Below, piece after piece: positions 3 through 31,261 of a stretch of 64,000 nucleotides of DNA (within the stretch, counting starts at the first letter, position 1; the number at the start of each line of letters is the position of its first letter). The DNA is from an uncultured Clostridia bacterium (lineage in GTDB: Bacteria; Bacillota; Clostridia; Christensenellales; UBA1242), in assembly GCA_930971385.1 (NCBI GenBank), contig CAKNGB010000001.1, positions 3,670 to 67,669 of the forward strand. The letters run 5' to 3'. A model generated the notes under the pieces. The model searched no databases and was not told the DNA's origin. It saw only the letters and a list, made by a program, of their open reading frames with translations. The position numbers and the translations under genes were made by a program.

Positions 3-3000
3 AATGAAGATAGTTTTGTTTACTTTTCCGTTAATGATTTAAGTTATAAACTCGACACAACCGAAGTGGAAAATTTTGATTTCTCTTCGCTTTTGCCATA
101 TCTTCAATCAAATGTCGACACCGACGCACTTTTAGAATTTTTGTCACGCTACACAGGCGTTGATTTTGCCAACTTAGACTTAAATTCACTTATGACCGAA
201 CTTTCCATTAAGGAAAATAATGTGGAAGAAGGTCATCGTTTCACAATTTCCTTAGGCTCGCTTATTGTGACCATTGATTGTGATGAAAATTTTAACAACA
301 TTTCACTCACACTTCGCGAAATCAACTATGGCGGATATAACATCAAGGCAAGCGTTGACACAGTTGAACTAAACCGAGAAGATTTTGCTCTTAACTTAAC
401 GCCAACAGGCGAGGAAACGGATATCACATCTCTTCTTCAACTTGTGGAAAATGCCAAACTTAATGAAAACACCTATGCACTTTCTTTTGACCTTACCATT
501 AGTGTTGATGATATGGTTGTTAACGGCGATGTTATGGCAATGCTCGTTCAAAGTGGAAATGAACTTGTGCCATATGTTAGATTTAAAATGAACGAATTTG
601 AAGGCTTCAAGGGATATATCTATTTAATCGATAACACTGTATATTTAAACGCACAAAACCTTCTTTTAAAATTTGATATAAACGAATTGAATGAAGATAA
701 ACTTACCGAAATTGAAGGCGTTTTAAAAGACTTTGGCATTGATTTAGATGTAGTTGAAACCGTCAGCGTCATTCTTCCAACACTTGAAAACATTAAATTG
801 ACACTGCTTGAAAGCGGACTTCAAGTTGTGGTTGATGATGTGGTTATCGGCGATAAATTAAGTTTAAATAACATCAATTTAAGCGTAAATTTAACAAATG
901 CTGATGATGTTATCTTGCCTAGTTCCGCTGAGATTTTGGCAACCTTAACCGACCTTGAAAGCAAAGAAAACAAAGATGTTAAAATTCTTCTTGACAACAT
1001 AAAAATTGGCGCAAGCACACAGAACTTAGACGACATCACTTTTGAAGAAAACGAAATCTTCCTTCAAACGAATTTAGATAAGAAAGAATTAAACGAATTT
1101 GCTGATATTGCTCCTTTAACAAGCATAATAACAAACGCTCTTGGCACAAAAACCTTGCAAGGAGATGTTAATTTGCAAGTTTCAAAGGGCGAATTTAAAG
1201 TTGATTTAACAGGGTTTGTTAAATTTGACCTTGATTCTCTTTCTGTTTCTGCCGATTTAACCTTAAAATATGAAAATGTGAGTGTTGATGCTAAAGTTTA
1301 CGGCTTCAACTTAGATGAAAGTCACTTGGTTTACATCAGCCTTGGAGGCGAGGTTTTCGCTTTGGATGTTGATAATCTTGACTTTGAAAGATTGATGAAA
1401 GACTACGGAATTTCTCAGCCAGCTATTGATGCTGTGGATGTTATTAAAGATATTATCTCTGTTGACATCAATAATTTAGACCTTGTTAACCTATCAAACA
1501 GGCTTAATTTAAAAGAAATTGAAAATGGCTACGCATTGACATTCGACGAAAAAGAAATAAAGATTAACTATAACGAAACTTTCAATATTTTCAACTTTGA
1601 TGTTAGTGCAATTTCATATGAAGGTTATGTTGTTAAAGTGGGGTTAGATAATGTTGAAATCAATGCCTCTGATTTTGCAATAGACTTTGTGCCAACTGGC
1701 GAGGAAACAGAAATTTCTTCCATTTTGTTTATTGAAGAATATGCAAGGTTAAACGAAACAGAACAGGAAACAACTTATGCTCTTTCTTCCGATTTATCAG
1801 TTTCTGTTGACGATATGACTTTAACTGGCAATATTTTGGCAAGATTAGTTAAAAGCGAAAGTGGTTTAACGCCATATCTAAGAGTTAAAATAAATGAATT
1901 TAAAGGCTTTAAGGGATATATCTATTTAATTGATAACACTGTTTATTTAAACGCACAAAATCTTCTTTTGAAACTTGATATTGATGATTTAACTGAAGAA
2001 AAATTAAGCGAGATTGAAGAGATTTTAACTAACTTCGGCGTCAGCATGGAAGAGACAGAAAAATTCACACTTGTTCTTCCAACGCTTTCTGAAATCAGCA
2101 TCAACTGGCTTGAAAACGGCATCAATATTGCAACGAAAAACGGTCTTACGATTAATGAACAATACAACCTTTCCGATATAAGTTTAAGTTTAATCACTTC
2201 CAATGAAAACGATGTTATTTTGCCAGAAGAAGTTAAAGTTAGTGCAACTTTAAACAATTTAACAAACAGCGCACAAAATGAATTTAAATTGACACTCTCA
2301 TCTGTTAAACTTGGCAAGAATTCACTGCATCTTGAAGACATTGCTTTTGGTGAAAACAGCATTTCACTTCAAACCAACACTGGCATGACAACAACTGACA
2401 AATTTATGGATGCAATGAAAATTTTTGACCTTGCAAAAAATGTGCTTGAAACAAAAAATGTTCAAGGAAACATCAATTTAACCATTGAAAATGGTGAAAC
2501 CAAAATTGATGCAGAAGGCGTGGTGAAATTTGACCTTAACAATATGGCAGTTTCTGCTGACTTAACACTAAATTACAATGGCTTAAATGTCAGCCTTTCA
2601 GTTTATGGCTTTAATATTGATGTTAATCGCACGATTTATCTAACTTATGACGGACGCACATTCGCTCTTAATATTGACAATATTGACCTTTCGTCATTTA
2701 TGGAAACAAACGAAGAAGTTGATGTCACAGAAACTGTTGTAAATATTATTAAAGATGTTTTAGGAATTGACATTAATAATGTTGACATCGCAAACTTAAC
2801 TAACCAAATTTTCTTAAATGAAATTGAAAACGGCTATACAATCACATTTAACGATAAAACAATCACTTTAAACTATAACGAATTATTTAATATTTTCAGT
2901 GTAGATTTAAGCAAAATTTCATATAATGGTTTTTATGTAAAGGTAAATTTAAGTGATGTTGAAATCAATGCTTCAAACTTTGCGATTGACTACACTCCAA

Positions 3001-5456
3001 CTGGCGAGGAAACAGAAATTTCTTCCATGTTTAAACTTTTGGAAAACGCAAAACTCGATGAAAACACCTATGCGTTCTCGGGCGACTTAGCAGTTAGATA
3101 CAGCACAACATCTTTCTATGGCAACATTTTGGCTATGCTTGTGGAAAGCGAAAACGGTTTTGTGCCATATATAAGAATTTACACATCCTCTATGAATTTA
3201 AACACATATATCTATCTTCTTGATGAAACAATCTACCTTGACCTTCATGGGCTTAGGTTAACTTTCAATTTAAGTGAAAATTCGATTAATGAAATTCTAG
3301 CCTTTGTTCAAGAAAACTTTGGTGTTGAGGAGTTGAACGCAACAGTTGCGCTTTCGGTTATCTTGCCAAAACTCAGTGCAATAACTCATGGCTGGTCTGT
3401 TGATAATGGACTTCAAATCAACATTTCTGATAATCTATATTACACCGAAACATCTTATTTCAAAGATATCGTTCTTCAAGCATTTATGGCGGAAACTGAC
3501 ACTCAAATTCTGCCAACGGGCGTGGTGATTGGCGCAAACATTGTTGACCCTAACACAGAAATTTATGATGATTACAGCGATTATCTTTTAAACGGCGAAA
3601 ATCCAGTCACATCAAACAAGAATTTCGCAGTTTACATCGACAATATCTCGATTGGAAAGAGTGCCGACTATCAAAATTCTATCACTTTTGAAAATGGAAA
3701 GGTAGTTTCTGTTGTTGGCTTTAACGATGTTAGTTTTGATGTTGCAGAATTTGTGGATGTTCATGTTTTAATGGATATTGTGGAAAAGGCACTTAGCTAT
3801 ATTAATTCAAACACCTTCCAACTTCGTATTGACGCAACTCTTCAAAATGGAAAGAATGAAACAAGAATAGGTGGCGATGTTATCCTCTCAATCACAAAAG
3901 CCGTGAAAGAAAATGAGGCGGAAACTAAGGTTGGCTTCACATTGTTTGGTGGTAAGCGTCTTAAATTGCAAGCCGATTTGACAATTGAAAACTATGCTCC
4001 ACAATTAGTTGAAACAACCAATGAAGAAACTATGGTGAGAACTTCGGAACATCAAATTTCCATCTATTACGACTCTAATCAAGTGGATGAAAATGGCTAT
4101 GTTCAAAGCGACCTTGGCGGACTTTACATTTCTTACACTCACGACCAAAACATCGGCACAAACTATTTCCGTGGTCATATTCAAAACACCGATTTAAATG
4201 ATAAAAATCAAAAAGCGGATATGAGTGATTTGATTGCTTTAATTCTTAATTTTGCAAACATTGAAATTGGCGACGAGGCAATGGAAAGTTGGCAACTAAC
4301 TGAAAACACAACCGACTTTAGTTTCCTTCAAAAACTTCTTGGAATTGGTGGCAATGATTTAAGTGATGAAATCACCGAAACCGACCAAATTTTAGGCGAT
4401 GTTTCAAGCATTTTAGCAATGATAGAAAGCATTTCGTTTAACAAGAATGAACAGAATGTTTATGAACTTGCAGTGGGTGTTGATTTAGGCGATAATGTGG
4501 CTGAAATTTCTGTTATTTTCGATAAAAACAACAATTTAAGCATAATTAATGCTGGAAACATTTCCTTTGAAAATAACAACATCACAGCAAGCATAGAAGT
4601 GCAGGAATATGATGAAGCGAATTTTGATTATAATATAAATAATTCTCACTTCGACCTATCCAACATTCCAGAATTTTTGGATATTGCTGTGAACACCTTA
4701 AACACAAAATCGTTTAACTATCAAGGCACAATAAATCTTGAAATGACAAAACTTGCAACAATAGATATCAATGTCGATTTATTTGGAAAATTTGATGAAA
4801 ATAATGAACTTTCGCTTTATGTTGAACTTGGCATTGTTCCAAATGGTCTTAGTACATTAGCATTTGATTCATTATTCAAAAGTCGTACAACTCAAATAAC
4901 AATAGAACATGGCGTTATGTCTATCATAAGACACACAACTAAGATTATCGGTAGTGAAACCCATGAGGCAACTTATAAATTAAGTGAAATAAACACTGAT
5001 AACATGTTGACAGTTATTGATGATATCCTTGGATTTAGCAGTTTGGCAGAAAGCATTATCAAAACGGTTATTGAAAATATAACACTGCCAACTCCAACTA
5101 TTGAAGAAGCAATGAAAGAGTTTAGTGTGACCGATACGGGTTATAGACTAGGGCTTGACGGATATAATGTGACTGGCATGGATGGCATTCAAGATATTAT
5201 CTATGTTGACCTTGGTGTTAGCAAAGGATATGATGTTAATATTAATAATGAAGAACTTGGTCAGTATGAAAAAACACTCAAATTCATTGAGTCCATTTCC
5301 ACATCCTTGAATGTTGATGATATGTTAATTGTGGACTTAACCTTAAAAAGCGTCAACGGAACTTCTTATCAGACTTCTTTAGGTGAAACAATTTATACGA
5401 ATGAGTGGTATAGACAACAATACATTTCATCGATTGGAACATTAAAAGAAAATTAA
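3..5456 (+). CDS. giant acidic Asn/Asp/Glu-rich repeat protein, 5'-truncated by the window edge (1817 aa visible); function unknown
   Basis: Frame 3 is open from nt 3: NEDSFVYFSVNDLSYKLDTTEV precedes the GTG at 66 that the ORF track used as start. That upstream stretch aligns with the end of the internal repeat unit (..LVYISLGGEVFALDVDNLDFERL / ..TIYLTYDGRTFALNIDNIDLSSF), so the true start is upstream of the window. Stop TAA at 5454-5456 is followed by a hairpin terminator. No family recognised. Confidence 0.85.
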   Translation, partial: NEDSFVYFSVNDLSYKLDTTEVENFDFSSLLPYLQSNVDTDALLEFLSRYTGVDFANLDLNSLMTELSIKENNVEEGHRFTISLGSLIVTIDCDENFNNISLTLREINYGGYNIKASVDTVELNREDFALNLTPTGEETDITSLLQLVENAKLNENTYALSFDLTISVDDMVVNGDVMAMLVQSGNELVPYVRFKMNEFEGFKGYIYLIDNTVYLNAQNLLLKFDINELNEDKLTEIEGVLKDFGIDLDVVETVSVILPTLENIKLTLLESGLQVVVDDVVIGDKLSLNNINLSVNLTNADDVILPSSAEILATLTDLESKENKDVKILLDNIKIGASTQNLDDITFEENEIFLQTNLDKKELNEFADIAPLTSIITNALGTKTLQGDVNLQVSKGEFKVDLTGFVKFDLDSLSVSADLTLKYENVSVDAKVYGFNLDESHLVYISLGGEVFALDVDNLDFERLMKDYGISQPAIDAVDVIKDIISVDINNLDLVNLSNRLNLKEIENGYALTFDEKEIKINYNETFNIFNFDVSAISYEGYVVKVGLDNVEINASDFAIDFVPTGEETEISSILFIEEYARLNETEQETTYALSSDLSVSVDDMTLTGNILARLVKSESGLTPYLRVKINEFKGFKGYIYLIDNTVYLNAQNLLLKLDIDDLTEEKLSEIEEILTNFGVSMEETEKFTLVLPTLSEISINWLENGINIATKNGLTINEQYNLSDISLSLITSNENDVILPEEVKVSATLNNLTNSAQNEFKLTLSSVKLGKNSLHLEDIAFGENSISLQTNTGMTTTDKFMDAMKIFDLAKNVLETKNVQGNINLTIENGETKIDAEGVVKFDLNNMAVSADLTLNYNGLNVSLSVYGFNIDVNRTIYLTYDGRTFALNIDNIDLSSFMETNEEVDVTETVVNIIKDVLGIDINNVDIANLTNQIFLNEIENGYTITFNDKTITLNYNELFNIFSVDLSKISYNGFYVKVNLSDVEINASNFAIDYTPTGEETEISSMFKLLENAKLDENTYAFSGDLAVRYSTTSFYGNILAMLVESENGFVPYIRIYTSSMNLNTYIYLLDETIYLDLHGLRLTFNLSENSINEILAFVQENFGVEELNATVALSVILPKLSAITHGWSVDNGLQINISDNLYYTETSYFKDIVLQAFMAETDTQILPTGVVIGANIVDPNTEIYDDYSDYLLNGENPVTSNKNFAVYIDNISIGKSADYQNSITFENGKVVSVVGFNDVSFDVAEFVDVHVLMDIVEKALSYINSNTFQLRIDATLQNGKNETRIGGDVILSITKAVKENEAETKVGFTLFGGKRLKLQADLTIENYAPQLVETTNEETMVRTSEHQISIYYDSNQVDENGYVQSDLGGLYISYTHDQNIGTNYFRGHIQNTDLNDKNQKADMSDLIALILNFANIEIGDEAMESWQLTENTTDFSFLQKLLGIGGNDLSDEITETDQILGDVSSILAMIESISFNKNEQNVYELAVGVDLGDNVAEISVIFDKNNNLSIINAGNISFENNNITASIEVQEYDEANFDYNINNSHFDLSNIPEFLDIAVNTLNTKSFNYQGTINLEMTKLATIDINVDLFGKFDENNELSLYVELGIVPNGLSTLAFDSLFKSRTTQITIEHGVMSIIRHTTKIIGSETHEATYKLSEINTDNMLTVIDDILGFSSLAESIIKTVIENITLPTPTIEEAMKEFSVTDTGYRLGLDGYNVTGMDGIQDIIYVDLGVSKGYDVNINNEELGQYEKTLKFIESISTSLNVDDMLIVDLTLKSVNGTSYQTSLGETIYTNEWYRQQYISSIGTLKEN
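66..3990 (+). repeat. intragenic tandem repeat, three units of ~1.3 kb (~433 aa); the third is more diverged and a fourth probably lies upstream of the window
   Basis: The anchor motif P(T/V)GEET(D/E)I(T/S)S recurs at nt ~400, ~1692 and ~2998 (spacings 1292 and 1306 nt). Long collinear similarity between units, e.g. GFKGYIYLIDNTVYLNAQNLLLK is identical in units 1 and 2. Confidence 0.8.
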
Positions 5457-7372: not shown

Positions 7373-8656
7373 TCATTTTAATTTTTTAACAATCTCATCA
7401 AAACTCAATTTTTCCTGCGCCGAGGAGCGCATATCTTTAATTGTGTAGCGTTTCTCTTTCATTTCATCTTCGCCAAGCACAATGATGTATGGAAGCTTTC
7501 GCCTATTTGCTTCCTTCATTTTTGCCTTAAAACTCTTTCCTTCACCAACAATATCTGCTCGAATTTTTGCATTTCGTAAATCTGTCATAAGCGAAAGAGC
7601 AAACAGCATAGTTTCGTCAAACGCAACAATGCCAACTTGTGTTACCAAGTTTTCGTCGGTTTTAAATTTATCTTTAATTTCATCAAAAAGCCTTGTGATG
7701 CCAATGCTCATGCCCACGCCTTGAAACTTTCTTTCCGTGAAGTTGCCACAAAGGTTGTCATATCTTCCACCGCCACCAATAGCAAGATTTGAGTTTTCGA
7801 TAAACGCTTCAAACACGGTGCCAGTGTAGTAGTTATGTCCACGCACTATGGATAGATCGAAAGAATAGTTCTTTTTATCCATTTTAAGATATTTAAGGCG
7901 TTCATTTAAAGCCTTTAAATCCGAGATTCCTTCAAGGAAGGTTGGGTTGTCGGATAACTTTTCAACTTTTGCAATAATTGCCTCTAAATCGCCATTTTGC
8001 TTGGCAAGCAAGAAGGTTTGGTCAACTTGTGCAACAGTCAAACCACTTGCAATAAACATATTGGCAATTTCTTCCTCAGAAAGTTTTGCCATTTTGTCGT
8101 AAATAATCATAAGGTCGGAGATGTTTTTCGCTCCAATTCCCTCAAAAAAGCCAGCAAGAATTTTTCGATTGGAAATTTTAACATAGCAATTTAAGTTTAA
8201 CGCGCCAAGCGTGTCCTCATAAAGTTTAATACATTCAGCGTCGGCGGTTATCGACAAGTTTTCGCCAACAATGTCAGCGTCGCATTGATAGAACTCGCGA
8301 AATCTTCCTTTTTGAGGGCGTTCACCGCGATACACCTTGCCAACTTGATAGCGCTTAAAAGGAAATTCCAAAACATTTTCGTTCATGGCAACAAACCTTG
8401 CAAGAGGCACAGTTAAATCATAGCGTAAGCATAGGTCATTGTTGCCTTTTTGAAAACGATAAATTTCCTTATCAACTTCGCCACCACTTTTAGCAAGCAG
8501 AATTTCAGAGTATTCTGCAACTGGCGTGTCGAGAGGCATAAAACAATTATTTTCAAAGACTTTTCTTATCTTTGAAAGCATATTTTCAAACACAATTTCC
8601 TCTTCTGGCATAAGTTCCCAAAAGCCCTGAGGTTTTCTTGGAGTTATAAGTTTCAT
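7373..8656 (-). CDS. hisS: histidyl-tRNA synthetase
   Basis: Class II HisRS motifs (RYDLTVPLAR, FREFYQCDADIVG, GGGGRYDNL) plus a C-terminal anticodon-binding domain. GGAG RBS. Stop is TGA. Confidence 0.9.
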   Translation of the reverse strand: MKLITPRKPQGFWELMPEEEIVFENMLSKIRKVFENNCFMPLDTPVAEYSEILLAKSGGEVDKEIYRFQKGNNDLCLRYDLTVPLARFVAMNENVLEFPFKRYQVGKVYRGERPQKGRFREFYQCDADIVGENLSITADAECIKLYEDTLGALNLNCYVKISNRKILAGFFEGIGAKNISDLMIIYDKMAKLSEEEIANMFIASGLTVAQVDQTFLLAKQNGDLEAIIAKVEKLSDNPTFLEGISDLKALNERLKYLKMDKKNYSFDLSIVRGHNYYTGTVFEAFIENSNLAIGGGGRYDNLCGNFTERKFQGVGMSIGITRLFDEIKDKFKTDENLVTQVGIVAFDETMLFALSLMTDLRNAKIRADIVGEGKSFKAKMKEANRRKLPYIIVLGEDEMKEKRYTIKDMRSSAQEKLSFDEIVKKLK

Positions 8657-23179: not shown

Positions 23180-23308
23180 TGTTGAATTGTGAGCTAATTT
23201 CTGGTTTAAAATTAAGTGAAATCCTATCAAATAATTTATTTAGCCTAAAATATTAGTTGAATTATAGGTCAGCAATAAAAAAATATTAAAAAATATCTTG
23301 AAAAACAC

Positions 23309-23338
23309 TTGACAAAACCTTTTTTCATAGGCTATAAT
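23309..23338 (+). promoter_or_regulatory. consensus promoter of tRNA-Glu and the downstream structured RNA
   Basis: TTGACA (23309-23314), 18-nt spacer, TATAAT (23333-23338). Confidence 0.65.
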
Positions 23339-23357
23339 GACTTAGCGTAAGAAATTT

Positions 23358-23432
23358 GGTCTCGTGGTCAAGAGGTTAAGACACCGCCCCTTCACGGCGG
23401 TATCAGGGGTTCGATTCCCCTCGAGATCACCA
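23358..23432 (+). tRNA. tRNA-Glu (anticodon TTC)
   Basis: Hand-folded cloverleaf GGTCTCG/CGAGATC, anticodon stem CCGCC/GGCGG, T-arm AGGGG-TTCGATT-CCCCT, encoded CCA. The anticodon loop reads CCTTCAC, i.e. C rather than the near-universal U at position 33. Confidence 0.85.
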
Positions 23433-23440
23433 AAAAATTA

Positions 23441-23589
23441 GGACAGACACCAACATCGTTTAACGCGGGCACGGAAAACAAGTTTCCTAACCGCTACTAT
23501 GTTGGTTTCTCCGCCTAGTCCTCTTCCGCGTAGGTGATTTTCAATTTATGCTTGTCGGGCAAAGCCCTTCTTCAAGCAAAATTGAAAAT
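23441..23589 (+). ncRNA. unclassified structured RNA, family A copy 1
   Basis: Begins 8 nt after tRNA-Glu and ends before the terminator at 23632-23670. Module 1 is an extended hairpin: P1 23449-56/23499-506, P2 GCGG/CCGC 23465-68/23491-94, P3 GGAAA/TTTCC 23473-77/23483-87. Module 2 is the hairpin 23537-23589. It is homologous to 25935-26191 (minus strand) with compensatory changes. Confidence 0.6.
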
Positions 23590-23631
23590 TAATTAAGATA
23601 CATTTTTAATTACCAATATAATTATATAAGT

Positions 23632-23670
23632 AAACAAGTTCGAAAAGCATCGCCTTTTGCTTGTTTTTTT
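23632..23670 (+). terminator. rho-independent terminator of the tRNA-Glu / family A RNA transcript
   Basis: AAACAAG...CTTGTTT stem with inner AAAAGC atc GC(C)TTTT, followed by T7. Confidence 0.65.
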
Positions 23671-23674
23671 GTTT

Positions 23675-23845
23675 CACGACCAAACGCAACTCGCAAACGC
23701 TTTCGAGTTGGTCGTGACTTACGAGGTTTTGATTATAGTAAAGTTATGTAGGAATCGAACGGGCGGTAAAGAAAAGTTGCCGGTGTGCAAGTTTTCTCCG
23801 CCCCGGCGTGAAAGCGGAATAACTTAGTTGGACGGGTTACTAATG
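23675..23845 (-). ncRNA. GC-rich structured element immediately downstream of comFC (family B copy 2); candidate ncRNA
   Basis: Hairpin 23675-23716 (CACGACCAA..CAACTCG / CGAGTTGGTCGTG). Hairpin 23761-23803 (GGGCGG-AGAAAAgTTGC / GCAAgTTTTCT-CCGCCC). T-loop-like GTTCGATTCC on the minus strand (23751-23760). Collinear similarity to 18166-18263. Strand is tentative. Confidence 0.4.
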
Positions 23846-24649
23846 TTAAAGTTCAACATTTTCGTTTTCTTCCTTTTTTAATGCGTTTCTGGCAAGAGCG
23901 CACACAAAGATATTGTTTGCGTGTTTTGAAAGTATTTTCGCGCAGGTATTTAAGGTGGCACAGGTGGTTATGATGTCATCCACAATCAAAACATTTTTGT
24001 TTTTCACAAGCTCTTTATCTTTCAAATTAAAAACGCTTAAAAGGTTCTTTTGCCTTTCAAGATAATTTAAAGTTTTTTGTGATTTTGTTTCAGAAACTTT
24101 TTCCAAGGTTTCAAGGCACGGCAAGTTTAAAATTTTGGCAAGATTTTTAGCAAGGAGTTTCGATTGATTGAAACTTCTTTCTTTTTCTTTTCTTTTCGTC
24201 ATTGGCACATAGGTTATAAGGTCAATTTTCCAGCCCTTTATTTCTTTGGCAATAATTATTGCATAGCCTTTGGCAAGATACCGCTTATTGTCAGATTTAT
24301 ATGAAAGCAAACTTTTCCTTACTAAATCTTTATATAAAAAGGGTGCTCTTGCCTTTTTAAAATATCGCTTATTTTTTTGGCAGTGGTCGCAAATAACCGC
24401 TTCATTCCCTATCGGCTCGTCGCAAATTAAACATCTTTTTCCATCGTTTTTAGGCAATAATTTTTCACAATTAGAGCAATAAGGTTTCTCATAAAAGGAG
24501 GGGATGTCGCGCCCACAAAAAACACATTTAATATCATCAGGGAAAATTAATTTATTAAAAAAAATTGATATTTTCTTAAAAATATCATATTTTTTACGTT
24601 TTTTTTGAGTTTTTTCCTTATTTTTTAATGATTTTTTCATATTTTTCAT
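23846..24649 (-). CDS. comFC: ComF family protein (phosphoribosyltransferase domain, N-terminal CxxC zinc finger), paralog 1
   Basis: CVFCGR..CSNC..CLIC..CDHC zinc-finger cysteines and the PRTase motif VLIVDDIITTCAT. Confidence 0.85.
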   Translation of the reverse strand: MKNMKKSLKNKEKTQKKRKKYDIFKKISIFFNKLIFPDDIKCVFCGRDIPSFYEKPYCSNCEKLLPKNDGKRCLICDEPIGNEAVICDHCQKNKRYFKKARAPFLYKDLVRKSLLSYKSDNKRYLAKGYAIIIAKEIKGWKIDLITYVPMTKRKEKERSFNQSKLLAKNLAKILNLPCLETLEKVSETKSQKTLNYLERQKNLLSVFNLKDKELVKNKNVLIVDDIITTCATLNTCAKILSKHANNIFVCALARNALKKEENENVEL

Positions 24650-24651
24650 TT

Positions 24652-25383
24652 TTATTTATTTTTCATAAGTCTTTGGCGGACAATTTCATAGACCACAATT
24701 CCAGCCGAAACACTGGCGTTAAGTGAGTTTACTTTGCCAAAAAGTGGAAGAGAGATAACGTCGTCACAATATGCCTTTATGCTTTGTTTTGTGCCTTTGC
24801 CTTCAGAGCCGATAACAATGCCAATTTTTCCTGTGAGGTCGGTTTTGTAGATATCCTTTCCGCCAATTTCAGCGGAGTATATCCAAAGTCCGTTTTCTTT
24901 CAGCGCGTCAATCGCTTCTTTCAAATTTGTGACGCGAGCAATTCTCATGTTGCTGACAGCACCAGCACTTGTTCTTATCACAGTTTCATTCACTTGGCAA
25001 GCGCGCATTTTTGGAAGTATTATTCCATGCACGCCAGCACACTCGCAGGAGCGGATGATTGCGCCAAGGTTATGCGGGTCCTCAATTCCGTCGAGAAGCA
25101 CAACAAAAGCGTCTTCATTTTTCTCTTTGGCATAGTTTAGAATGTCGTCAACATCACAGTAAGAAAAATCCACAGTTTCAGCAATATATCCTTGATGATG
25201 TGAGGTGACTGAAATTTTGTCTAAAACATTTTTTGGCACAAACTCACACTTAATTTTCATGCTTTTTGCTTCTCGGATGATTTCATCTTTACGAGAGGCA
25301 TAGTTTTTGTCGATATAGATTTTGTTTATCGTTTTTTCGCTTTTAAGAGCCTCTAAAACCTGATTTCTTCCTTCAATATTCAT
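24652..25383 (-). CDS. rlmB: TrmH/SpoU-family 23S rRNA 2'-O-methyltransferase, RlmB-like
   Basis: N-terminal EGRNQVLEAL substrate-binding domain and SpoU methylase motifs (DGIEDPHNLGAIIRS, IGSEGKG, LNASVSAGI). Overlaps mrnC by 4 nt. Confidence 0.85.
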   Translation of the reverse strand: MNIEGRNQVLEALKSEKTINKIYIDKNYASRKDEIIREAKSMKIKCEFVPKNVLDKISVTSHHQGYIAETVDFSYCDVDDILNYAKEKNEDAFVVLLDGIEDPHNLGAIIRSCECAGVHGIILPKMRACQVNETVIRTSAGAVSNMRIARVTNLKEAIDALKENGLWIYSAEIGGKDIYKTDLTGKIGIVIGSEGKGTKQSIKAYCDDVISLPLFGKVNSLNASVSAGIVVYEIVRQRLMKNK

Positions 25384-25757
25384 ACTTCCTCGCTAACTGA
25401 AATTTTTAAGATTTCTTTCAATCTTTCCTTTTGCTCTGTCAGATACAAGAACCCAACAAGCGCTTCAAAAGCGGTGGCTTTTTTATACTCTTCTTCATTA
25501 AAGTTTTTTGCTTTGTGTTTAGACTTAGCATTTCTTGCACGCCTCACAATTTCGCTTTCTTCAAAAGATAGCATTGGCAAAAGTTTTTCAAGCACTTCCT
25601 TTTGATGTTTGGCGTTGCAGAACTTTTTTGCTTTTTGATGATAGTAATTTAAATTTGAAATGCCACCTTTAACAACAAATTCACGGACAAACAATGTGTG
25701 CACGCCGTCGCCAATAAACGCTAAGGCGAGAGGGGAGAGGTTGTCAATTTTTTCCAT
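25380..25757 (-). CDS. mrnC: mini-ribonuclease III
   Basis: LAFIGDGVHTLFVRE and ATAFEALVGFLYL RNase III signature residues. 125 aa with no dsRBD. Confidence 0.85.
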   Translation of the reverse strand: MEKIDNLSPLALAFIGDGVHTLFVREFVVKGGISNLNYYHQKAKKFCNAKHQKEVLEKLLPMLSFEESEIVRRARNAKSKHKAKNFNEEEYKKATAFEALVGFLYLTEQKERLKEILKISVSEEV

Positions 25758-25934
25758 GTTTTTCCTTTTATATAAACTTTATTGTTTTTCATGTTTTGTG
25801 TAAAGACATAATCTTTTAATTTTTAGCAAACCGCATTCTTTAAGCAATGAGTGAAGGATTGAAGAAGATTTTTGAAAACAATATAAATATAATTAAACCA
25901 TTTTGCCAGCAACTACCACTTACATACTCTAAAC

Positions 25935-26191
25935 AATTTTTGATTTTGCGAGGGGAAGGGCTTTGCCCGTCGAGCATAAATCAAAAATTAAATGGGGACA
26001 CCGAAAATGTTTATCATTTTTGGGGATAAGGAGTAAACAAACGAAATGGTAAGTGTTTTGAATACTTTCAAAGCACGAAATGAAGTGCTGTTTGCGACGC
26101 GGATGAGGATTGGGATGGGAAACCAACGTAGTAGCCGTTAGGGAAGCCACTCCTTCCCGTGTCGGCGTTAAGCGAAGTTGGTGTCCGCACC
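25935..26191 (-). ncRNA. unclassified structured RNA, family A copy 2 (with a 104-nt insertion)
   Basis: Starts 3 nt after the ychF stop codon and lies in the 437-nt gap upstream of mrnC. Module 1 is 26094-26191 (P2 GCCG/CGGC, P3 GGGAAG/CTTCCC). Module 2 is 25935-25989 (12-bp outer stem AATTTTTGATTT/AAATCAAAAATT, apical GGGC-aaa-GCCC). The insertion is 25990-26093. Confidence 0.6.
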
Positions 26192-26194
26192 AAT

Positions 26195-27289
26195 CTAGTT
26201 GTTAAATCTAAAAAGCACAACATCGCCGTCTTGCATCACATAGTCTTTGCCTTCCATTCTCACTTTGCCTTTTTCTTTTGCGCGTAAAAACGAGCCTGCT
26301 TCCACAAGGTCGTCATAGGAAACAATTTCCGCTTTGATGAAACCTTTTTCAAAATCGGAGTGAATTTTTCCAGCAGCCTGAGGTGCTTTTGTGCCTTTGT
26401 GAATGGTCCACGCGCGCACTTCTTTTTCGCCAGCAGTGATATAACTCATAAGCCCAAGAAGGTCATAACTTGCCACAACAAGTTTTTCTAGTCCTGACGA
26501 TTTAATGCCAAGTTCGTCTTTAAACATCTGCCTTTCGTCTTTGTCGAGTTTAGCAATTTCCTCTTCAATTTTGGTGCAGAGGGCGACCACTTTGGCGTTT
26601 TCTTTTTCCGCCACTTTTTTCACTTCCTCCACAAACTTATTTGTTTCTTTTGCCAAATCTTCTTCGCCGATATTGGCAACATAGATAACTGGTTTCATGG
26701 TTAAAAGTGAGAAGTTCTTTAAGATTTTTTCTTCGTCCTCTGAATATTGCAAACTTCTTGCACGACCGCCTTTTTCAAGCACCTCTTTAATTCTTTTCAT
26801 AACTTCAACCGTTGTCAGCAAGGTTTTGTCGCCAGTTTGCTTTGAAAGTTTTGCATTTTTTTCAATCACCTTTTCCACTTGCTCTAGGTCGGAAAGCGCC
26901 AGTTCCATTTCAATGGTTTCAATGTCGCGCACAGGATTAATCGAGCCTGAAACGTGGATGATTTTGTCGTTTTCAAAACATCTAACAACGTGCACAATGG
27001 CGTCAACTTCGCGGATATGGCTTAAAAATTTGTTGCCAAGCCCTTCGCCATGACTGGCACCAGCCACAAGCCCTGCAATATCCACAAACTCAATGCTTGC
27101 AGGCGTAATCTTTTGCGTGTTATACATTTTTCCCAAAACATTCAGCCTTTCATCTGGCACATCCACCACGCCGATGTTTGGCTCGATTGTGCAGAAAGGA
27201 TAGTTCGCACTTTCTGCACCAGCGTCAGTTATTGCATTAAACAAGGAACTTTTTCCCACATTAGGAAGCCCCACAACTCCAATTTTCAT
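26195..27289 (-). CDS. ychF: redox-regulated ATPase YchF
   Basis: [14 protein letters not shown]-loop, a TGS-like C-terminal domain, 364 aa. GGAG RBS before the ATG at 27289; the track start at 27295 is GTG. Confidence 0.92.
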
Positions 27290-27479
27290 AAACACTCCAT
27301 GATGTTATATTAATAATTTTTTGATTATCTTTGATATTATAGCAAATTTGAAAAGTTTTTTCAATTAAAGTGGTGTAAAAAATATGATATTTTCTTTTGT
27401 CAACCGATATTTTTAATAAAATTATGCTGTTTTCCTTTAAAATTAAAGTGAAAAAGAAAAGGGAACGGTTTTCCGCTTC

Positions 27480-30400
27480 CTATTTTCTTAAATCGGTTTC
27501 TTTGGTATTGCCTTGCTTTTCTTTATCATTAACAATTCCGCGAAGGTCTTTAAAAGCCTTTTTATTCGCTGAAGTGTCATAAGCATCTCCCATGCTTTCT
27601 TTAACTTCCTCTTCTTTTTTGTTGACATCGTCATTAATTTTGTTAAAAGCCTCTTCTTTCTTTTGCTTATCCTCTTCTTTTTTTGCTTTGTCAGCGCGAT
27701 TTATGATGTCATCTGCAAAGGTTTTAAGGTTAAGTTTTTCAGCAATTTCTTTTGTTTCTTCTTGCATTTCATATTCATGTCTTTCGCTTTCCAAACGATT
27801 TTGTTTCATAGCTTTTTCCGTAGGTCCAGTGTTTTTCCACCTGTCGTCGAATGCGGAATTTTTAATTGCGTCTTCCGGTCTTAAGCCATATTCCATTTGA
27901 TCGGAAATTTTAACCGCTTTTTGCAAGGTTTCTTTTCTCTTCTTTAATGCGTCAATATGTTTTTCCACATTGGCAATTGCTTCTGCACGATTAAATTCAG
28001 AAATAGGGTTTCTTGCGAGGTTGTCTATTGTAAGTTCAGATTGAATTTTTGCCTTTTCGTCTTTAAGAGTGGTGATTTTTGTTTCGTGTTTTTTAATTAT
28101 TTTTTCTATCATAGTTGATTTTTCATAAAATACTTTTGCTTTTTTTTCAACTTCTTTTGCGTTGTTTAAGTTGCTTTCAATATCTCTAATTATGCCACGG
28201 CGATTTTCTTGCACAGATTGTAAGACTCGCTTATCAAAATCGGTTTTGTATGCAAAAGCATCTAATGCTTTTTTTGCCTTTTCTGTGTTTTCTGAGAAAA
28301 TGTCATTAAATGCTTTTTTATATTTTGCTTGAATCGCATTTAATGTTTCTTGCTTTAATTTTTCAATTTCTTCTTCCGAAAGATTTTTATCATTCAATAT
28401 GGAATTGACATTTTTTTGTAAATTTGCTAATTCTTCTTCTTGATTATGATAGTTTGTGAGTTCATTTTTAGATTTTTCAAGCATTTCACTATAATTAAGA
28501 ACAAGTTTATTTGCTTTGATATATTCATCTTCATATTCAATCATGGTATTTCTAAATCCAGAAATTTCCTCTTCTTCGCTTTTAATTTGATCGTCAATTT
28601 GAGCTATTTTTTGTTGTTTTTCTTGGCGCTCATTTTCTGGCATAGCCTTATTTTTGCCACCATTTTTCAAAAAATCAAGTTCTTGCTCTAGTTGTGGCAA
28701 AATGCCGTCAATGCTTTCAATTTCTTGTTGATATCTTGCTTTATCGCCCTCAATTCTTTCAAGTTTTGCTTGTCTTGTGATTTGCCTATCTTCTCTTTCA
28801 AGTTCCTTTCTTCTTGCTCGAGCGTCAAGTGCTTGATTCAAATACCCGCCAGTTCCCCAATTCCAAGGCTTTGTTGCAAGAAGTGCAGAAGTTGCAAATC
28901 CTGCAATTGCAAAAGGTGCAAGAAATGGAATGAAAACGCTGAGTGCTGTTAAAAAGGCGGAAACTCCCAAAAAACTAGCCCAAATTTTTTCTTCATTAAC
29001 TTCTTCATTAACTGGTTTTGGTGCAGTTGCCGCACCACCGCCAGCACTTCCTCCGCCAGAGCCACCTCTACTTTTTGGTGTTTGCTGAGCACTTGGTGCT
29101 CCATTTCCACTTGGCGCTTCTTGGCGAGGGGTAGGTGTTTCATTTTGAGGCTCAGGAGTTTCATTAGATGGTTCTGGTGTTTCTTGTGGTGGGGTTGGAG
29201 GTGGAGGTGTTAAATCTTGTTCTTCATGAGAAGGTTCGTTATCTCCTTGAGCGTCATCATCACTAGGTTTTTCTTCGTTTTGGCTAGGTGGTGTTTGTTC
29301 AAAAGTTCTTCCTGGAAGAGATTTTTGAGCGTCATCCTCCAAATCATTTTGAGGAGGTTCATGAGTTGGTTCATTTGGCACTAAGCCACTTTGATTATCT
29401 TCTCCAAGTTCGGTGCGAGGTTTACCATCAACAACATGAACATTTTGTTTTCTTCCGTCTTCATACTCCACAGTGTATTCATCAATAATTTGACCGCCAG
29501 CAAAATATGCGTCATTACGAGTGGTTTCAGCGTCAAAGTTTTCTTTCTTTGGTTGTGTGTATAAATTGTTATCTTGTTTTGGTTCAAGTTGGTTATTTTC
29601 ATGTTCATCTTCTTGAATTTCATGAAGAGGAGGTTCTTGACTTTCTAAATCAGTGGTTTGTTTTGGTGAATTTTGATAGAAAACGGTGTCATTTTCAATT
29701 ATGGCATTTGGCGATTGAGTTGACGCGTTATATCTTTCATCTTCAACAATGATGCTTTCAGGTGTTCTAAGTTCATTTTTTTCGTCGCTTTGGTTGGCAA
29801 GTCCAGTTTCCTTTTCATTTTGCACAACAAGCCCATGCTCTTCATTACTTTTTCCTTTTACCTTATGTGGTGGAACAAGAACAAAGTCTTTTTCTTCACT
29901 AGGCACAAGAATAAAGCCATGCTCATCCTCTTCAACCACTTCTGGCTCCTTTTCTTCCACAAGTTCGTTGCCTTTTTCTGTGCGTTTAACAACGGCAATA
30001 TCGGCGTAGGAATATATGTTTGCTTCGTCATAGCGGTCGATGTAAGTGCCTTCAAACTTCTTAAATTCTTCAGCATATTCCTTTTCCTTGCTGTCAAGAA
30101 ATTTTTGCACAGTTTTGCCAGTGCCTTTAAGGTCCATATTCAAATTGCAAGTCATGTTTCCTGCATGAAGTTTAAGTGAAAGGTTGTTGTTTTCAAAATT
30201 CATACCTCTCACTTCATAGTATTTTCCAACTTGTTTTCTTCCGTTCACTTCCAAATTGAAATAACCATAAAGTTTGCCGTCTTTTTCGGCAAGATTCAGC
30301 CATTCCGTGCCAACTTTTTCACCCTTTGGCACACGAATAGGAAGTGAGGTGATTGCAAGCGCGCCATAATTTTTTGTGATTGGTTGCACGCGTTTGATGT

Positions 30401-31067
30401 TGTCTAAGATGTTGTTTGTTTTAATTTCTTGGTTTGTTCTCATGCGGGCGTTTTGCGTGGAGGCGATGAGAAGTGCTTGCATTGTGGCACTTTCAAATTT
30501 CATATCTTCACCTAAATTGCAAGTGTTGTCATTTCCCATGGCTTTTTCTAAGAACCTGTCGGAAACGGCGATGTCGAAAGGATAGTCAGTGTTTCTGAAA
30601 ACGCTGTTTCCGTTTTTCGTGTCAACAATCTGCGCGCCAAAGGCAGAGAAGAGACAGGAAAAATCTTTGCCGTTTGTGCTTTTCACTTGCACATCAAGTT
30701 TCTTATCCAAAACAAGTTCGTTTAACTCCACATCTTGCCCGCGAAAATCTGCGTATTTATTATTTGTGTCGATAGATTTAAAAAATTCATCGCCAAAGTG
30801 GAGATAGGTCTTTCCGCCTTTGTCATAAAAATTTGCCACCAATTTGCCATTTTTATGAATTTTTAAAAGGTATTTATTAGAGTCGCTGGAATAAAGATGT
30901 TGTTCTCCTCTTTCCGAGAATTTGACATTGGCACTTTCAAGTTTAATATTTTGAGAAACCTTAATAACTCTATCTTCACCTTTAACATTTTTCGCGTCTT
31001 TTTTAAGAGTTTGCGAGTCGTTTCTAACGCGAGAAATAGGGCTGTCAAGATTAGATTTTTTTGCCAT
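27480..31067 (-). CDS. 1195-aa protein of unknown function: N-terminal globular region, acidic Pro/Glu/Gln-rich linker, Gly-rich stretch, two adjacent TM helices, ~460-aa coiled coil
   Basis: GGAGG RBS 5 nt before the ATG at 31067 (MAKKSNL). Hydrophobic hairpin IWASFLGVSAFLTALSVFIPFLAPFAIAGFATSALLA. The C-terminal half is heptad-like and Glu/Lys-rich. No N-terminal signal peptide. Confidence 0.75.
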   Translation of the reverse strand: MAKKSNLDSPISRVRNDSQTLKKDAKNVKGEDRVIKVSQNIKLESANVKFSERGEQHLYSSDSNKYLLKIHKNGKLVANFYDKGGKTYLHFGDEFFKSIDTNNKYADFRGQDVELNELVLDKKLDVQVKSTNGKDFSCLFSAFGAQIVDTKNGNSVFRNTDYPFDIAVSDRFLEKAMGNDNTCNLGEDMKFESATMQALLIASTQNARMRTNQEIKTNNILDNIKRVQPITKNYGALAITSLPIRVPKGEKVGTEWLNLAEKDGKLYGYFNLEVNGRKQVGKYYEVRGMNFENNNLSLKLHAGNMTCNLNMDLKGTGKTVQKFLDSKEKEYAEEFKKFEGTYIDRYDEANIYSYADIAVVKRTEKGNELVEEKEPEVVEEDEHGFILVPSEEKDFVLVPPHKVKGKSNEEHGLVVQNEKETGLANQSDEKNELRTPESIIVEDERYNASTQSPNAIIENDTVFYQNSPKQTTDLESQEPPLHEIQEDEHENNQLEPKQDNNLYTQPKKENFDAETTRNDAYFAGGQIIDEYTVEYEDGRKQNVHVVDGKPRTELGEDNQSGLVPNEPTHEPPQNDLEDDAQKSLPGRTFEQTPPSQNEEKPSDDDAQGDNEPSHEEQDLTPPPPTPPQETPEPSNETPEPQNETPTPRQEAPSGNGAPSAQQTPKSRGGSGGGSAGGGAATAPKPVNEEVNEEKIWASFLGVSAFLTALSVFIPFLAPFAIAGFATSALLATKPWNWGTGGYLNQALDARARRKELEREDRQITRQAKLERIEGDKARYQQEIESIDGILPQLEQELDFLKNGGKNKAMPENERQEKQQKIAQIDDQIKSEEEEISGFRNTMIEYEDEYIKANKLVLNYSEMLEKSKNELTNYHNQEEELANLQKNVNSILNDKNLSEEEIEKLKQETLNAIQAKYKKAFNDIFSENTEKAKKALDAFAYKTDFDKRVLQSVQENRRGIIRDIESNLNNAKEVEKKAKVFYEKSTMIEKIIKKHETKITTLKDEKAKIQSELTIDNLARNPISEFNRAEAIANVEKHIDALKKRKETLQKAVKISDQMEYGLRPEDAIKNSAFDDRWKNTGPTEKAMKQNRLESERHEYEMQEETKEIAEKLNLKTFADDIINRADKAKKEEDKQKKEEAFNKINDDVNKKEEEVKESMGDAYDTSANKKAFKDLRGIVNDKEKQGNTKETDLRK

Positions 31068-31261
31068 AAAATCCTCCATATAAAAAATTATAACATTTTT
31101 AAGATATTTTGTCAATTATTGTCTAAATTTAATTAAACTTGAACTAATATTTTTAAGTATGTGTAAAATGTGGATAAAATTAAGTTAAACAGTTGAAATT
31201 TTTTTTAATTTTTGGTAAAATACCATAGATAAATTGTAGAATAAGAATAATTGGAGTTAAT

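Follow-up and report, generated by a model that had tools for sequence, protein, structure and literature searches.

A 64,000-nucleotide (nt) stretch of DNA from an uncultured Clostridia bacterium (contig CAKNGB010000001.1, positions 3,670 to 67,669; the whole stretch is referred to here as the window) contains two copies of a modular structured RNA element that we call family A. Copy 2 occupies positions 26194-25934 on the minus strand, between ychF and mrnC, the gene for mini-RNase III (Mini-III); copy 1 occupies positions 23437-23591 on the plus strand, behind a tRNA-Glu gene. The copies are mutually alignable (pairwise alignment) and lie about 2.3 kb apart, flanking one operon. We confirm that the two sites are copies of one genuine structured non-coding family, far beyond what chance would produce. 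The element is a previously undescribed RNA family, absent from Rfam 15 and from phage, plasmid and IMG/VR searches, and backed by covariation. Its placement suggests a trailer of the gene upstream, and not the leader of the mrnC-rlmB-comFC operon that a preliminary description of this DNA had proposed. As for its role, our tentative choice, possible rather than probable, is an accessory modular structured RNA carried as the 3' trailer of ychF or tRNA-Glu, with a stable small RNA (sRNA) as its most likely product.

Architecture and covariation of the element

The order of modules in the element is a long hairpin (M1), a C/U-rich linker, an optional middle module (Mid) and a second hairpin (M2). 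The covariance model R1, which describes M1, recognizes copy 1 with 119.4 bits and copy 2 with 114.5 bits (E values of about 1e-32 and 1e-31 respectively), and the next-best match in the whole 64 kb scores 14.9 bits with the filters off. The model R2, which describes M2, gives 95.7 bits for copy 1 and 91.8 bits for copy 2, everything else in the window scoring at most 23.7 bits, again with the filters off. Consistent with these results, a pattern of 22 loop bases matches the window twice, at the two copies, where 100 shuffles give an expectation of 0 matches.

In copy 2 (minus strand) M1 spans 26109-26194 and is followed by a single-stranded C/U-rich linker at 26097-26108 (CCUCAUCCGCGU), which was delimited by alignment and is unpaired in the predicted folds, by Mid at 25991-26096 and by M2 at 25934-25990 (folding z-score of -4.8), after whose hairpin comes UUGUUU. 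In copy 1 (plus strand) M1 spans 23437-23519, the C/U-rich linker 23520-23534 (CCUCUUCCGCGUAGG, from the alignment) and M2 23535-23591 (folding z-score of -5.8). The preliminary description had recognized two conserved blocks in copy 2, at 26094-26191 and 25935-25989, separated by 104 nt missing from copy 1, and our alignment agrees. The two hairpins that it had placed in this insertion, AGCAC..GUGCU and UUUGAA-agua-UUCAAA, were both found.

M1 is a single long irregular hairpin of about 85 nt with five stems, P1-P5, and two conserved internal loops, CG(U/C)UUAAC opposite UACU and (G/A)CAC opposite UAA. The linker that follows has the core CCUCUUCC and the family consensus (G/A)UCCUCUUCC; it is conserved in 9/9 aligned instances and predicted to be single-stranded. 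Mid is 104-106 nt long and contains C/U-rich runs, CUCCUUAUCCCC and UCCCC, as well as three predicted hairpins, two of which stay paired through compensatory changes. M2 measures 57 nt and forms a hairpin of about 23 bp, A/U-rich at the base and G/C-rich towards the tip. Comparison by eye with an attC site, a K-turn, the 11-nt tetraloop receptor and the ACCU preference of Mini-III showed that the conserved loops fit none of them. A coding role was also rejected: the open reading frames (ORFs) that cross the element are 60-73 aa long and their frames are broken by 1-nt indels between species.

The fold of M1 is supported by nine distinct sequences, in which 93.5 % of the cells of the proposed pairs are paired compared to 84 % in shuffles. 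Ten pairs have changed on both sides, and none of 500 shuffles was as good. Shifting the register reduces pairing to 29-52 %, and RNAalifold returns the same M1 fold when left unguided. In M2, 94.9 % of the cells are paired and five pairs have changed on both sides. Copy 1 folded as M1 plus M2 (165 nt) has a z-score of -5.2, compared to -2.3 for M1 and its linker alone.

Changes that preserve pairing on one strand only are informative about the strand on which the element is read. The M1 copies of the window lineage have 7 G-U cells versus 2 A-C cells on the strand adopted in the preliminary description. M2 has 5 G-U cells at inner stem positions, or 13 when basal pairs are included, and no A-C cell was read from the alignment. 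Two transitions separate copy 2 of the window from its counterpart in L004 (labels L001-L026 denote the other loci that were compared with the window); both give G-U pairs, and pairing is kept only on the chosen strand. With G-U cells far outnumbering A-C cells in the paired positions of both hairpins, the strand originally chosen holds up as the likely one.

The element is more similar between species than its surroundings. Between the window and L015 identity amounts to 74 % in M1, 90 % in Mid and 79 % in M2, compared to 27-51 % at fourfold-degenerate sites of the flanking genes. Over 89 nt the window and L004 do not differ at all in copy 1 M1 (100 % identity), against a coding background of 87-90 %. 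Such identity above background requires either purifying selection or recent exchange. A search for recombination tracts found no raised identity in the adjoining coding ends. We also rejected the idea that species groups A and B exchanged the cassette recently through recombination in the genes on either side: identity at third codon positions is not elevated at the 5' end of mrnC, and on the ychF side its rise at the 3' end is no greater than at the 5' end.

At gathering thresholds, Rfam 15 yields only two tRNAs in the whole window. Relaxing the search to E<=10 over 25700-26300 and 23300-23900, on both strands, gave noise only, the best match reaching 22 bits versus a threshold of 63. A known Rfam family, whether riboswitch, leader, sRNA or ribozyme, is therefore ruled out, with no match on either strand. 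The element was not found by blastn in the phage and plasmid collections, and a pattern scan of IMG/VR gave no match; a phage or plasmid origin was rejected on the basis of these searches. Scanning 185,579 species genomes with the loop pattern gave matches only in L004, at the homologous locus, and in L005, although a pattern this strict could miss diverged copies.

Placement at gene 3' ends and distribution among relatives

Copy 2 abuts ychF, which encodes a YchF-type GTPase/ATPase (26195-27295, minus strand; Pfam YchF-GTPase_C and MMR_HSR1, from the ORF list) and ends with a TAG codon at 26195-26197. The non-coding gap between ychF and mrnC that had been described as unusually long is indeed 437 nt, at 25758-26194. 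The stretch from ychF to the element was likewise correctly described as free of a terminator; the first stem of M1 opens at 26194, right after the TAG. Downstream of the gap, and on the same strand, lie mrnC (25380-25757; Pfam Ribonuclease_3), which is the first gene of the operon, the SpoU/RlmB methyltransferase gene rlmB (24652-25383; Pfam) and a comFC-like gene (23846-24649; Pfam). Copy 1 begins 4-5 nt past the end of tRNA-Glu(UUC), a gene with an encoded CCA at 23358-23432 on the plus strand (ARAGORN; Rfam tRNA model, 60.3 bits).

This anchoring to the 3' end of the upstream gene recurs among relatives. M1 starts 0-3 nt past the ychF stop codon in the window, L015 and L018, and 4-6 nt past the CCA of tRNA-Glu in the window and L018. 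The window and L018 differ in how the tRNA block is oriented towards the operon: it lies on the opposite strand from mrnC in the window and on the same strand in L018, and its linkage to M1 is kept in both. The placement typical of a trailer, right behind its parent gene and sharing its strand, is thus found in two species groups. Copy 1 moreover has no downstream gene on its own strand; the 3' end of comFC converges on it.

The distance from the end of M2 to the mrnC start codon is 176 nt. This spacer (25758-25933, minus strand), which we characterized by a promoter scan and by alignment against L015, contains a promoter-like site at 25909-25880 (minus strand; a consensus match only) that would place the element outside the mrnC 5' untranslated region (UTR). 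A GGTTT.ATTATA motif between M2 and the mrnC start is also present in L015/L018. The spacer is 65 % identical overall between the window and L015, the last 90 nt or so being much better conserved, and it probably holds the true promoter and 5' UTR of mrnC. The approximately 90 nt before the mrnC start (25758-25850, minus strand; GCGGTTTGCTAAAAATTAAAAGATTATGTC...AATAAAGTTTATATAAAAGGAAAAAC) are much better conserved between species groups than synonymous sites are. This block, which could be a genuine promoter and leader of mrnC, is entirely missing from L016 and L022.

Given that M1 sits at the 3' end of the gene upstream, that copy 1 lacks a downstream gene and that a promoter-like block follows M2, the element would be a trailer of ychF or tRNA-Glu and not a leader of the mrnC operon. 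Under the leader hypothesis the element would act as a riboswitch or attenuator, or as a double-stranded substrate through which Mini-III regulates its own synthesis. In its favour, RNase III is known to regulate itself through a hairpin in its leader, M1 and M2 both form long double strands open to cleavage by enzymes of the RNase III type, and copy 2 precedes mrnC on the same strand, its M2 giving no strong terminator in the scan. We nevertheless consider a leader quite improbable. The three observations just given contradict it, and so does the presence of the same operon without the element in L012-14, L016 and L020-22. In addition, no riboswitch or leader of Rfam matches even at E<=10, and no conserved alternative pairing with the mrnC ribosome-binding site, as an expression platform would have, was seen. 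The only alternative pairing in the minimum free energy fold of copy 2, GGACACC with GGUGUCC, is by inspection not conserved in L015 or L006.

Two further suggestions about the locus fared differently. We found no evidence for the idea that the RNA mimics an rRNA or tRNA substrate. The proposed association with stable-RNA genes is weakened by the fact that the two copies flank one operon and are effectively one locus; it gains from the occurrence of M1, in the opposite orientation, in helix P12 of the RNase P RNA gene (rnpB) of L005, which is described below.

Copy 1 is followed by a canonical intrinsic terminator at 23632-23671 on the plus strand (AAACAAG...CUUGUUU and a U run, read directly from the sequence), which is a conserved module in L004, L006, L007 and L015. 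Situated 40 nt past copy 1, it would close a unit made of tRNA-Glu and copy 1. As an A run precedes it, the terminator can also block antisense read-through from comFC, which would shield copy 1.

These features bear on the possibility that the element acts purely in cis, with M1 and M2 stabilizing or terminating the ychF and tRNA-Glu transcripts and insulating mrnC, and with no RNA acting in trans. The location directly after the upstream gene agrees with such a role, as do the strong M2 hairpin (z-scores of -4.8 to -5.8) and the U runs found in L018. The arrangement of the flanking genes agrees as well: in relatives that lack the element the ychF-mrnC gap is 9-11 nt and the genes presumably form one operon, and a terminator inserted there would need a new promoter-like block, as is seen after M2. 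However, a tRNA needs no structured trailer of 160 nt, and a canonical terminator is already present 40 nt past copy 1. Neither the conserved linker nor the internal loops of M1 are necessary for termination, and L004 keeps M1 intact although M2 is lost. We regard a purely cis-acting 3' element as unlikely.

The window belongs to a lineage of uncultured low-GC Clostridia known from gut metagenomes, whose MrnC relatives are named Candidatus Caccovivens or Clostridia bacterium. The gene order secA, a large ORF, ychF, mrnC and rlmB is conserved among them. The large ORF between secA and ychF (27480-31115, minus strand) encodes 1211 aa without a Pfam domain in the window; its position is conserved among relatives and its length varies from about 1070 to 1480 aa.

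The ychF-linked element is present in the species group of the window itself (L001, L002 and L006-L010, with MrnC identities of 93-100 %), in the sister species L004 (87-90 % nt identity) and in a second group consisting of L015/L018 (MrnC identity of 70-71 %). L012-14 and L020/21 lack it, with 9-11 nt separating ychF from mrnC, and so do L016 and L022, where the gap is plain AT-rich sequence. The preliminary description had made the proposal depend on conservation of the element at this position among relatives. L004, L015 and L018 do carry it there; the synteny is partial, the ychF-linked copy being shared across two species groups and the same mrnC operon occurring without it in the loci just named as lacking it (L012-14, L016 and L020-22). 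The window, L001/2, L006, L010, L004 and L018 have the tRNA-Glu-linked copy, which L007 and L015 lack.

Exchange between the copies and M1 inside RNase P RNA

The 104-nt insertion of copy 2 is missing from window copy 1, as had been reported, but it is not private to copy 2. At the ychF-linked site Mid is present in the window and L015 and missing in L018; at the tRNA-linked site it is present in L006/L010 and missing in the window. A lone inverted Mid is found in L018 at 8464-8574, about 60 nt beyond the tRNA-linked copy. These filled and empty sites, together with the lone inverted Mid, bear out the earlier view of the middle block as a separate module.

When the two copies of L006 are compared with each other, Mid is 96 % identical and M1 74 %. 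M2 in L006 combines a 5' arm of the ychF type with a 3' arm of the tRNA type, and the ychF-linked copy of L018 has a junction of the tRNA type. These three features make gene conversion between the copies the best and simplest explanation of why Mid is present at some sites and missing at others. Two old paralogue types persist beneath this exchange. The P4 pair tells them apart across species groups, being G-C wherever M1 is tRNA-linked and C-G wherever it is ychF-linked.

Behind tRNA-Glu there is a further mosaic of small conserved modules (window 23632-23850, plus strand), whose order and number vary among strains with MrnC identities of 93-100 %. Its counterparts are at 1-365 in L004, 820-1460 in L006, 7900-8330 in L007 and 8240-8560 in L015. 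In the window the modules are, on the plus strand, the terminator T at 23632-23671, a hairpin H at 23675-23716 (CACGACCAA...TTGGTCGTG), a promoter-like module P at 23714-23739 (GTGACTTACGAGGTTTTGATTATAGT) and a GC-rich structured block G at about 23745-23850. None of the four recurs elsewhere in the 64 kb, and we rejected the idea that they form a dispersed family.

Block G opens with GGAATCGAAC (window 23750-23760), a perfect reverse complement to the T-arm in the adjacent tRNA-Glu. The L015 block opens (at about 8430-8442) with GGGACTCGAAC, matching the variant T-arm of L015, so that the start of G and the T-arm co-vary. In L007 (8165-8275) and L004 (120-240), a second copy of the last 20 nt of tRNA-Glu, a duplicate of its 3' end (GATTCCCCTCGAGATCACCA), comes after G. 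Block G and the duplicate may be the footprint of site-specific recombination at the tRNA or may represent a tRNA-derived small RNA.

Two other repeats were noted in the window. At 55212-56435 there are at least 15 tandem copies of a 66-nt unit, with 65-85 % identity over a 300-nt reference stretch, which probably correspond to a 22-residue repeat in a coding region. At 363-3180 three tandem paralogous segments spaced by about 1300 nt are 67-75 % identical and are probably a small tandem gene family.

Outside the lineage of the window, M1 was found in L005, a Christensenella metagenome-assembled genome, where the match lies within a full-length class-A RNase P RNA (261 bits), in an expanded helix P12. 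There it is on the strand opposite to the window orientation, with an R1 score of 83 bits. The L005 M1 is about 74 % identical to the window M1, its core being more similar and close to the tRNA-linked type. What L005 and the window share is M1 and the linker only. The presence of the whole M1-M2 unit in the L005 P12 was ruled out: R2 does not recognize the second hairpin, and local alignments stay at noise level.

The sister rnpB (L023/L024) is about 95 % identical outside P12 and has a P12 of only 20 nt. Side by side, L005 340-821 (minus strand) and L023 2660-3015 (plus strand) differ by a P12 expansion of about 145 nt with two tandem hairpins versus one 20-nt hairpin. Synteny with the neighbour gene of L005 provided this one further rnpB (L023/L024), on the Christensenella side; L025 and L026 have no rnpB there. 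The P12 expansion that contains M1 appears sporadic, in a comparison of two rnpB sequences that does not distinguish insertion from deletion. The L005 P12 follows the pattern of an intervening sequence (IVS), that is, a sporadic extended stem-loop at the tip of a peripheral helix, and the window copies do not.

The near 74 % antisense identity of M1 to the distal P12 hairpin of the L005 class-A rnpB raises the possibility that the window element derives from RNase P RNA, either as a dead fragment of P12 or as an antisense RNA to the P12 of the organism itself. The sister rnpB has a plain 20-nt P12, so M1 is no general feature of rnpB. M2 and Mid have no counterpart in L005, and the window holds nothing else of rnpB, with no RNase P match on either strand even at E<=10. 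A hidden rnpB on the plus strand of the 437-nt gap was rejected as well, since the conserved regions CR-I to CR-V are missing and Rfam gives no match. Both partners would also be stable hairpins and hence poor antisense partners. Such a derivation or antisense role is highly improbable.

A possible trailer RNA, its alternatives and known systems

If family A is a trailer RNA, we propose that the primary transcript would continue past the end of ychF, or of the tRNA, into M1. The usual maturation of the tRNA, or cutting of the mRNA by an endonuclease, would then free an RNA of about 160 nt (M1-linker-M2), or of about 270 nt when Mid is present. The M1 hairpin would guard the 5' end of the freed RNA and the M2 hairpin would close its 3' end, copy 1 being additionally backed by the terminator at 23632-23671. 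The working parts would be the single-stranded C/U-rich tracts, namely CCUCUUCC after M1 and CUCCUUAUCCCC and UCCCC in Mid. Being similar to the anti-Shine-Dalgarno sequence, these tracts might base-pair with ribosome-binding sites, or a protein might bind them. Meanwhile mrnC would be expressed from its own promoter downstream of M2. In favour of this reading are the covarying folds, the strand bias, the position right behind ychF or tRNA-Glu, the constraint on M1, Mid and M2, the two old paralogue types and the lack of coding potential. The M2 hairpins of L018 are followed by U5-U7, and in L006 and L004 M1 lies 5-8 nt past a promoter-like -10 element, as expected for a separate small-RNA unit. 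Small RNAs from tRNA spacers and 3' UTRs offer a precedent (PMC8383071).

A number of points weigh against such a trailer RNA. L022 has no element, yet its ychF and mrnC are about 90 % identical at the nt level to those of L015; the tRNA-linked copy is absent from L007 and L015; and L004 has lost M2 from both copies. The element is dispensable over short time scales. The U tract after M2 is U5-U7 in L018 and weak in both window copies, and folding energy does not tell the strands apart, both folding about equally well. A seed resembling anti-Shine-Dalgarno would fit almost any ribosome-binding site, and no specific target can be named. The comparisons show the modules, their folds and covariation, their attachment to upstream 3' ends, their patchy distribution and sequence exchange between the copies; transcription of the element, its processing, termination at M2 and any role in trans are what we infer. 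Finally, the inverted M1 of L005 cannot share a function at the RNA level with the window copies. The L005 case looks like the transfer, as DNA, of a module that forms a hairpin into a helix that tolerates it, in analogy with the intervening sequences of rRNA (PMC4990558).

The main alternative is that family A is a selfish or near-neutral structured DNA cassette, small and protein-less, mobile or spread by recombination, that persists where it is tolerated, for instance at the 3' ends of genes, in tRNA trailers and at the tip of P12 in RNase P RNA; the hairpins, terminators and promoters would then be incidental. Close relatives differ in its presence at the ychF site (L015/L018 vs L022) and at the tRNA site (window vs L007 and L015). 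Its build is modular, with Mid variably present and found in both orientations, and downstream of tRNA-Glu small modules have been shuffled into a mosaic, with the 20-nt duplicate of the tRNA 3' end among them. The rnpB genes of L005 and L023 differ in P12 and are 95 % identical elsewhere, and the core of the L005 M1 is near the tRNA-linked type of a different lineage, yet inverted. Precedents exist in the Correia elements, with their hairpins, promoters and RNase III sites (PMC2649163), and in the sporadic selfish intervening sequences of rRNA (PMC4990558).

Other observations fit a cassette poorly. Its copy number is low and local, two in 64 kb at one locus with the filters off, and the strict-pattern scan of 185,579 species genomes matched only the same locus in L004, plus L005. 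There were no matches in phages, plasmids or IMG/VR, and neither terminal inverted repeats nor target-site duplications at the L015-L022, L005-L023 and window-L006 junctions. The old site-specific paralogue types and the strand-biased compensatory changes are more easily explained by selection on an RNA. Overall we find the selfish or near-neutral cassette a somewhat doubtful explanation.

It is conceivable that M1, with or without its companions, represents a new kind of small, protein-less and transferable RNA-structure cassette in transcripts related to stable RNA, similar to an IVS and not restricted to rRNA. Its targets would be the tRNA-Glu trailer, the junction between ychF and the genes of 23S rRNA maturation, and P12 of RNase P RNA; it would move between distant gut Clostridia and then be kept by structural selection in the host RNA. 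Taken as one joint claim, this is rather unlikely.

Whatever its role, the element adds a covariation-supported RNA family to a poorly studied lineage of uncultured, low-GC gut Clostridia and corrects a tempting misannotation as a leader of the mini-RNase III operon. The inverted M1 in P12 of RNase P RNA is unusual and may help to trace the exchange of structured modules between RNA genes. If the trailer-sRNA reading is true, family A would be an example of a tRNA-trailer sRNA in Clostridia.

Among known RNAs, class-A RNase P RNA (RF00010) has the one homologous part, M1 being the reverse-complement homologue of the distal expanded P12 in L005. The resemblance ends there: the window lacks CR-I to CR-V, the orientation is opposite and the sister rnpB is without the module.

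Pneumococcal BOX elements are built from modules in the order boxA-boxB(n)-boxC. Family A resembles BOX and Correia elements (for the latter, PMC2649163) in being modular with an optional module, in its strong hairpins, in its position next to gene ends, in the promoter-like and terminator-like sequences nearby and in a presence that varies between close relatives. It differs in having two copies at one locus where those elements have tens to hundreds of dispersed copies, and in its lack of terminal inverted repeats or target duplications, its strand-biased compensatory evolution and its old site-specific paralogues.

Intervening sequences are found in helices 25 and 45 of 23S rRNA, for example in Coxiella (PMC4990558). 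The likeness concerns the L005 case only, in which the tip of a peripheral helix in an essential stable RNA has given way to an extended stem-loop, sporadically among near-identical genes. Unlike in those cases, the host RNA in L005 is RNase P RNA, at P12, and the window copies do not lie within any stable RNA.

The 3' external transcribed spacer of the Escherichia coli glyW-cysT-leuZ transcript is an sRNA sponge (PMC8383071; also PMC6191717). Family A has no sequence or structural homology to sRNAs of this kind, from tRNA trailers or 3' UTRs, and at 160-270 nt is much larger, besides being modular. Hfq and RNase E are needed by the examples known so far, whereas the host of family A belongs to the Clostridia. 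The overall plan is nevertheless similar: like these sRNAs, family A lies directly downstream of a tRNA or ORF on the same strand, would be released by processing, and has an end hairpin and a conserved single-stranded tract between hairpins.

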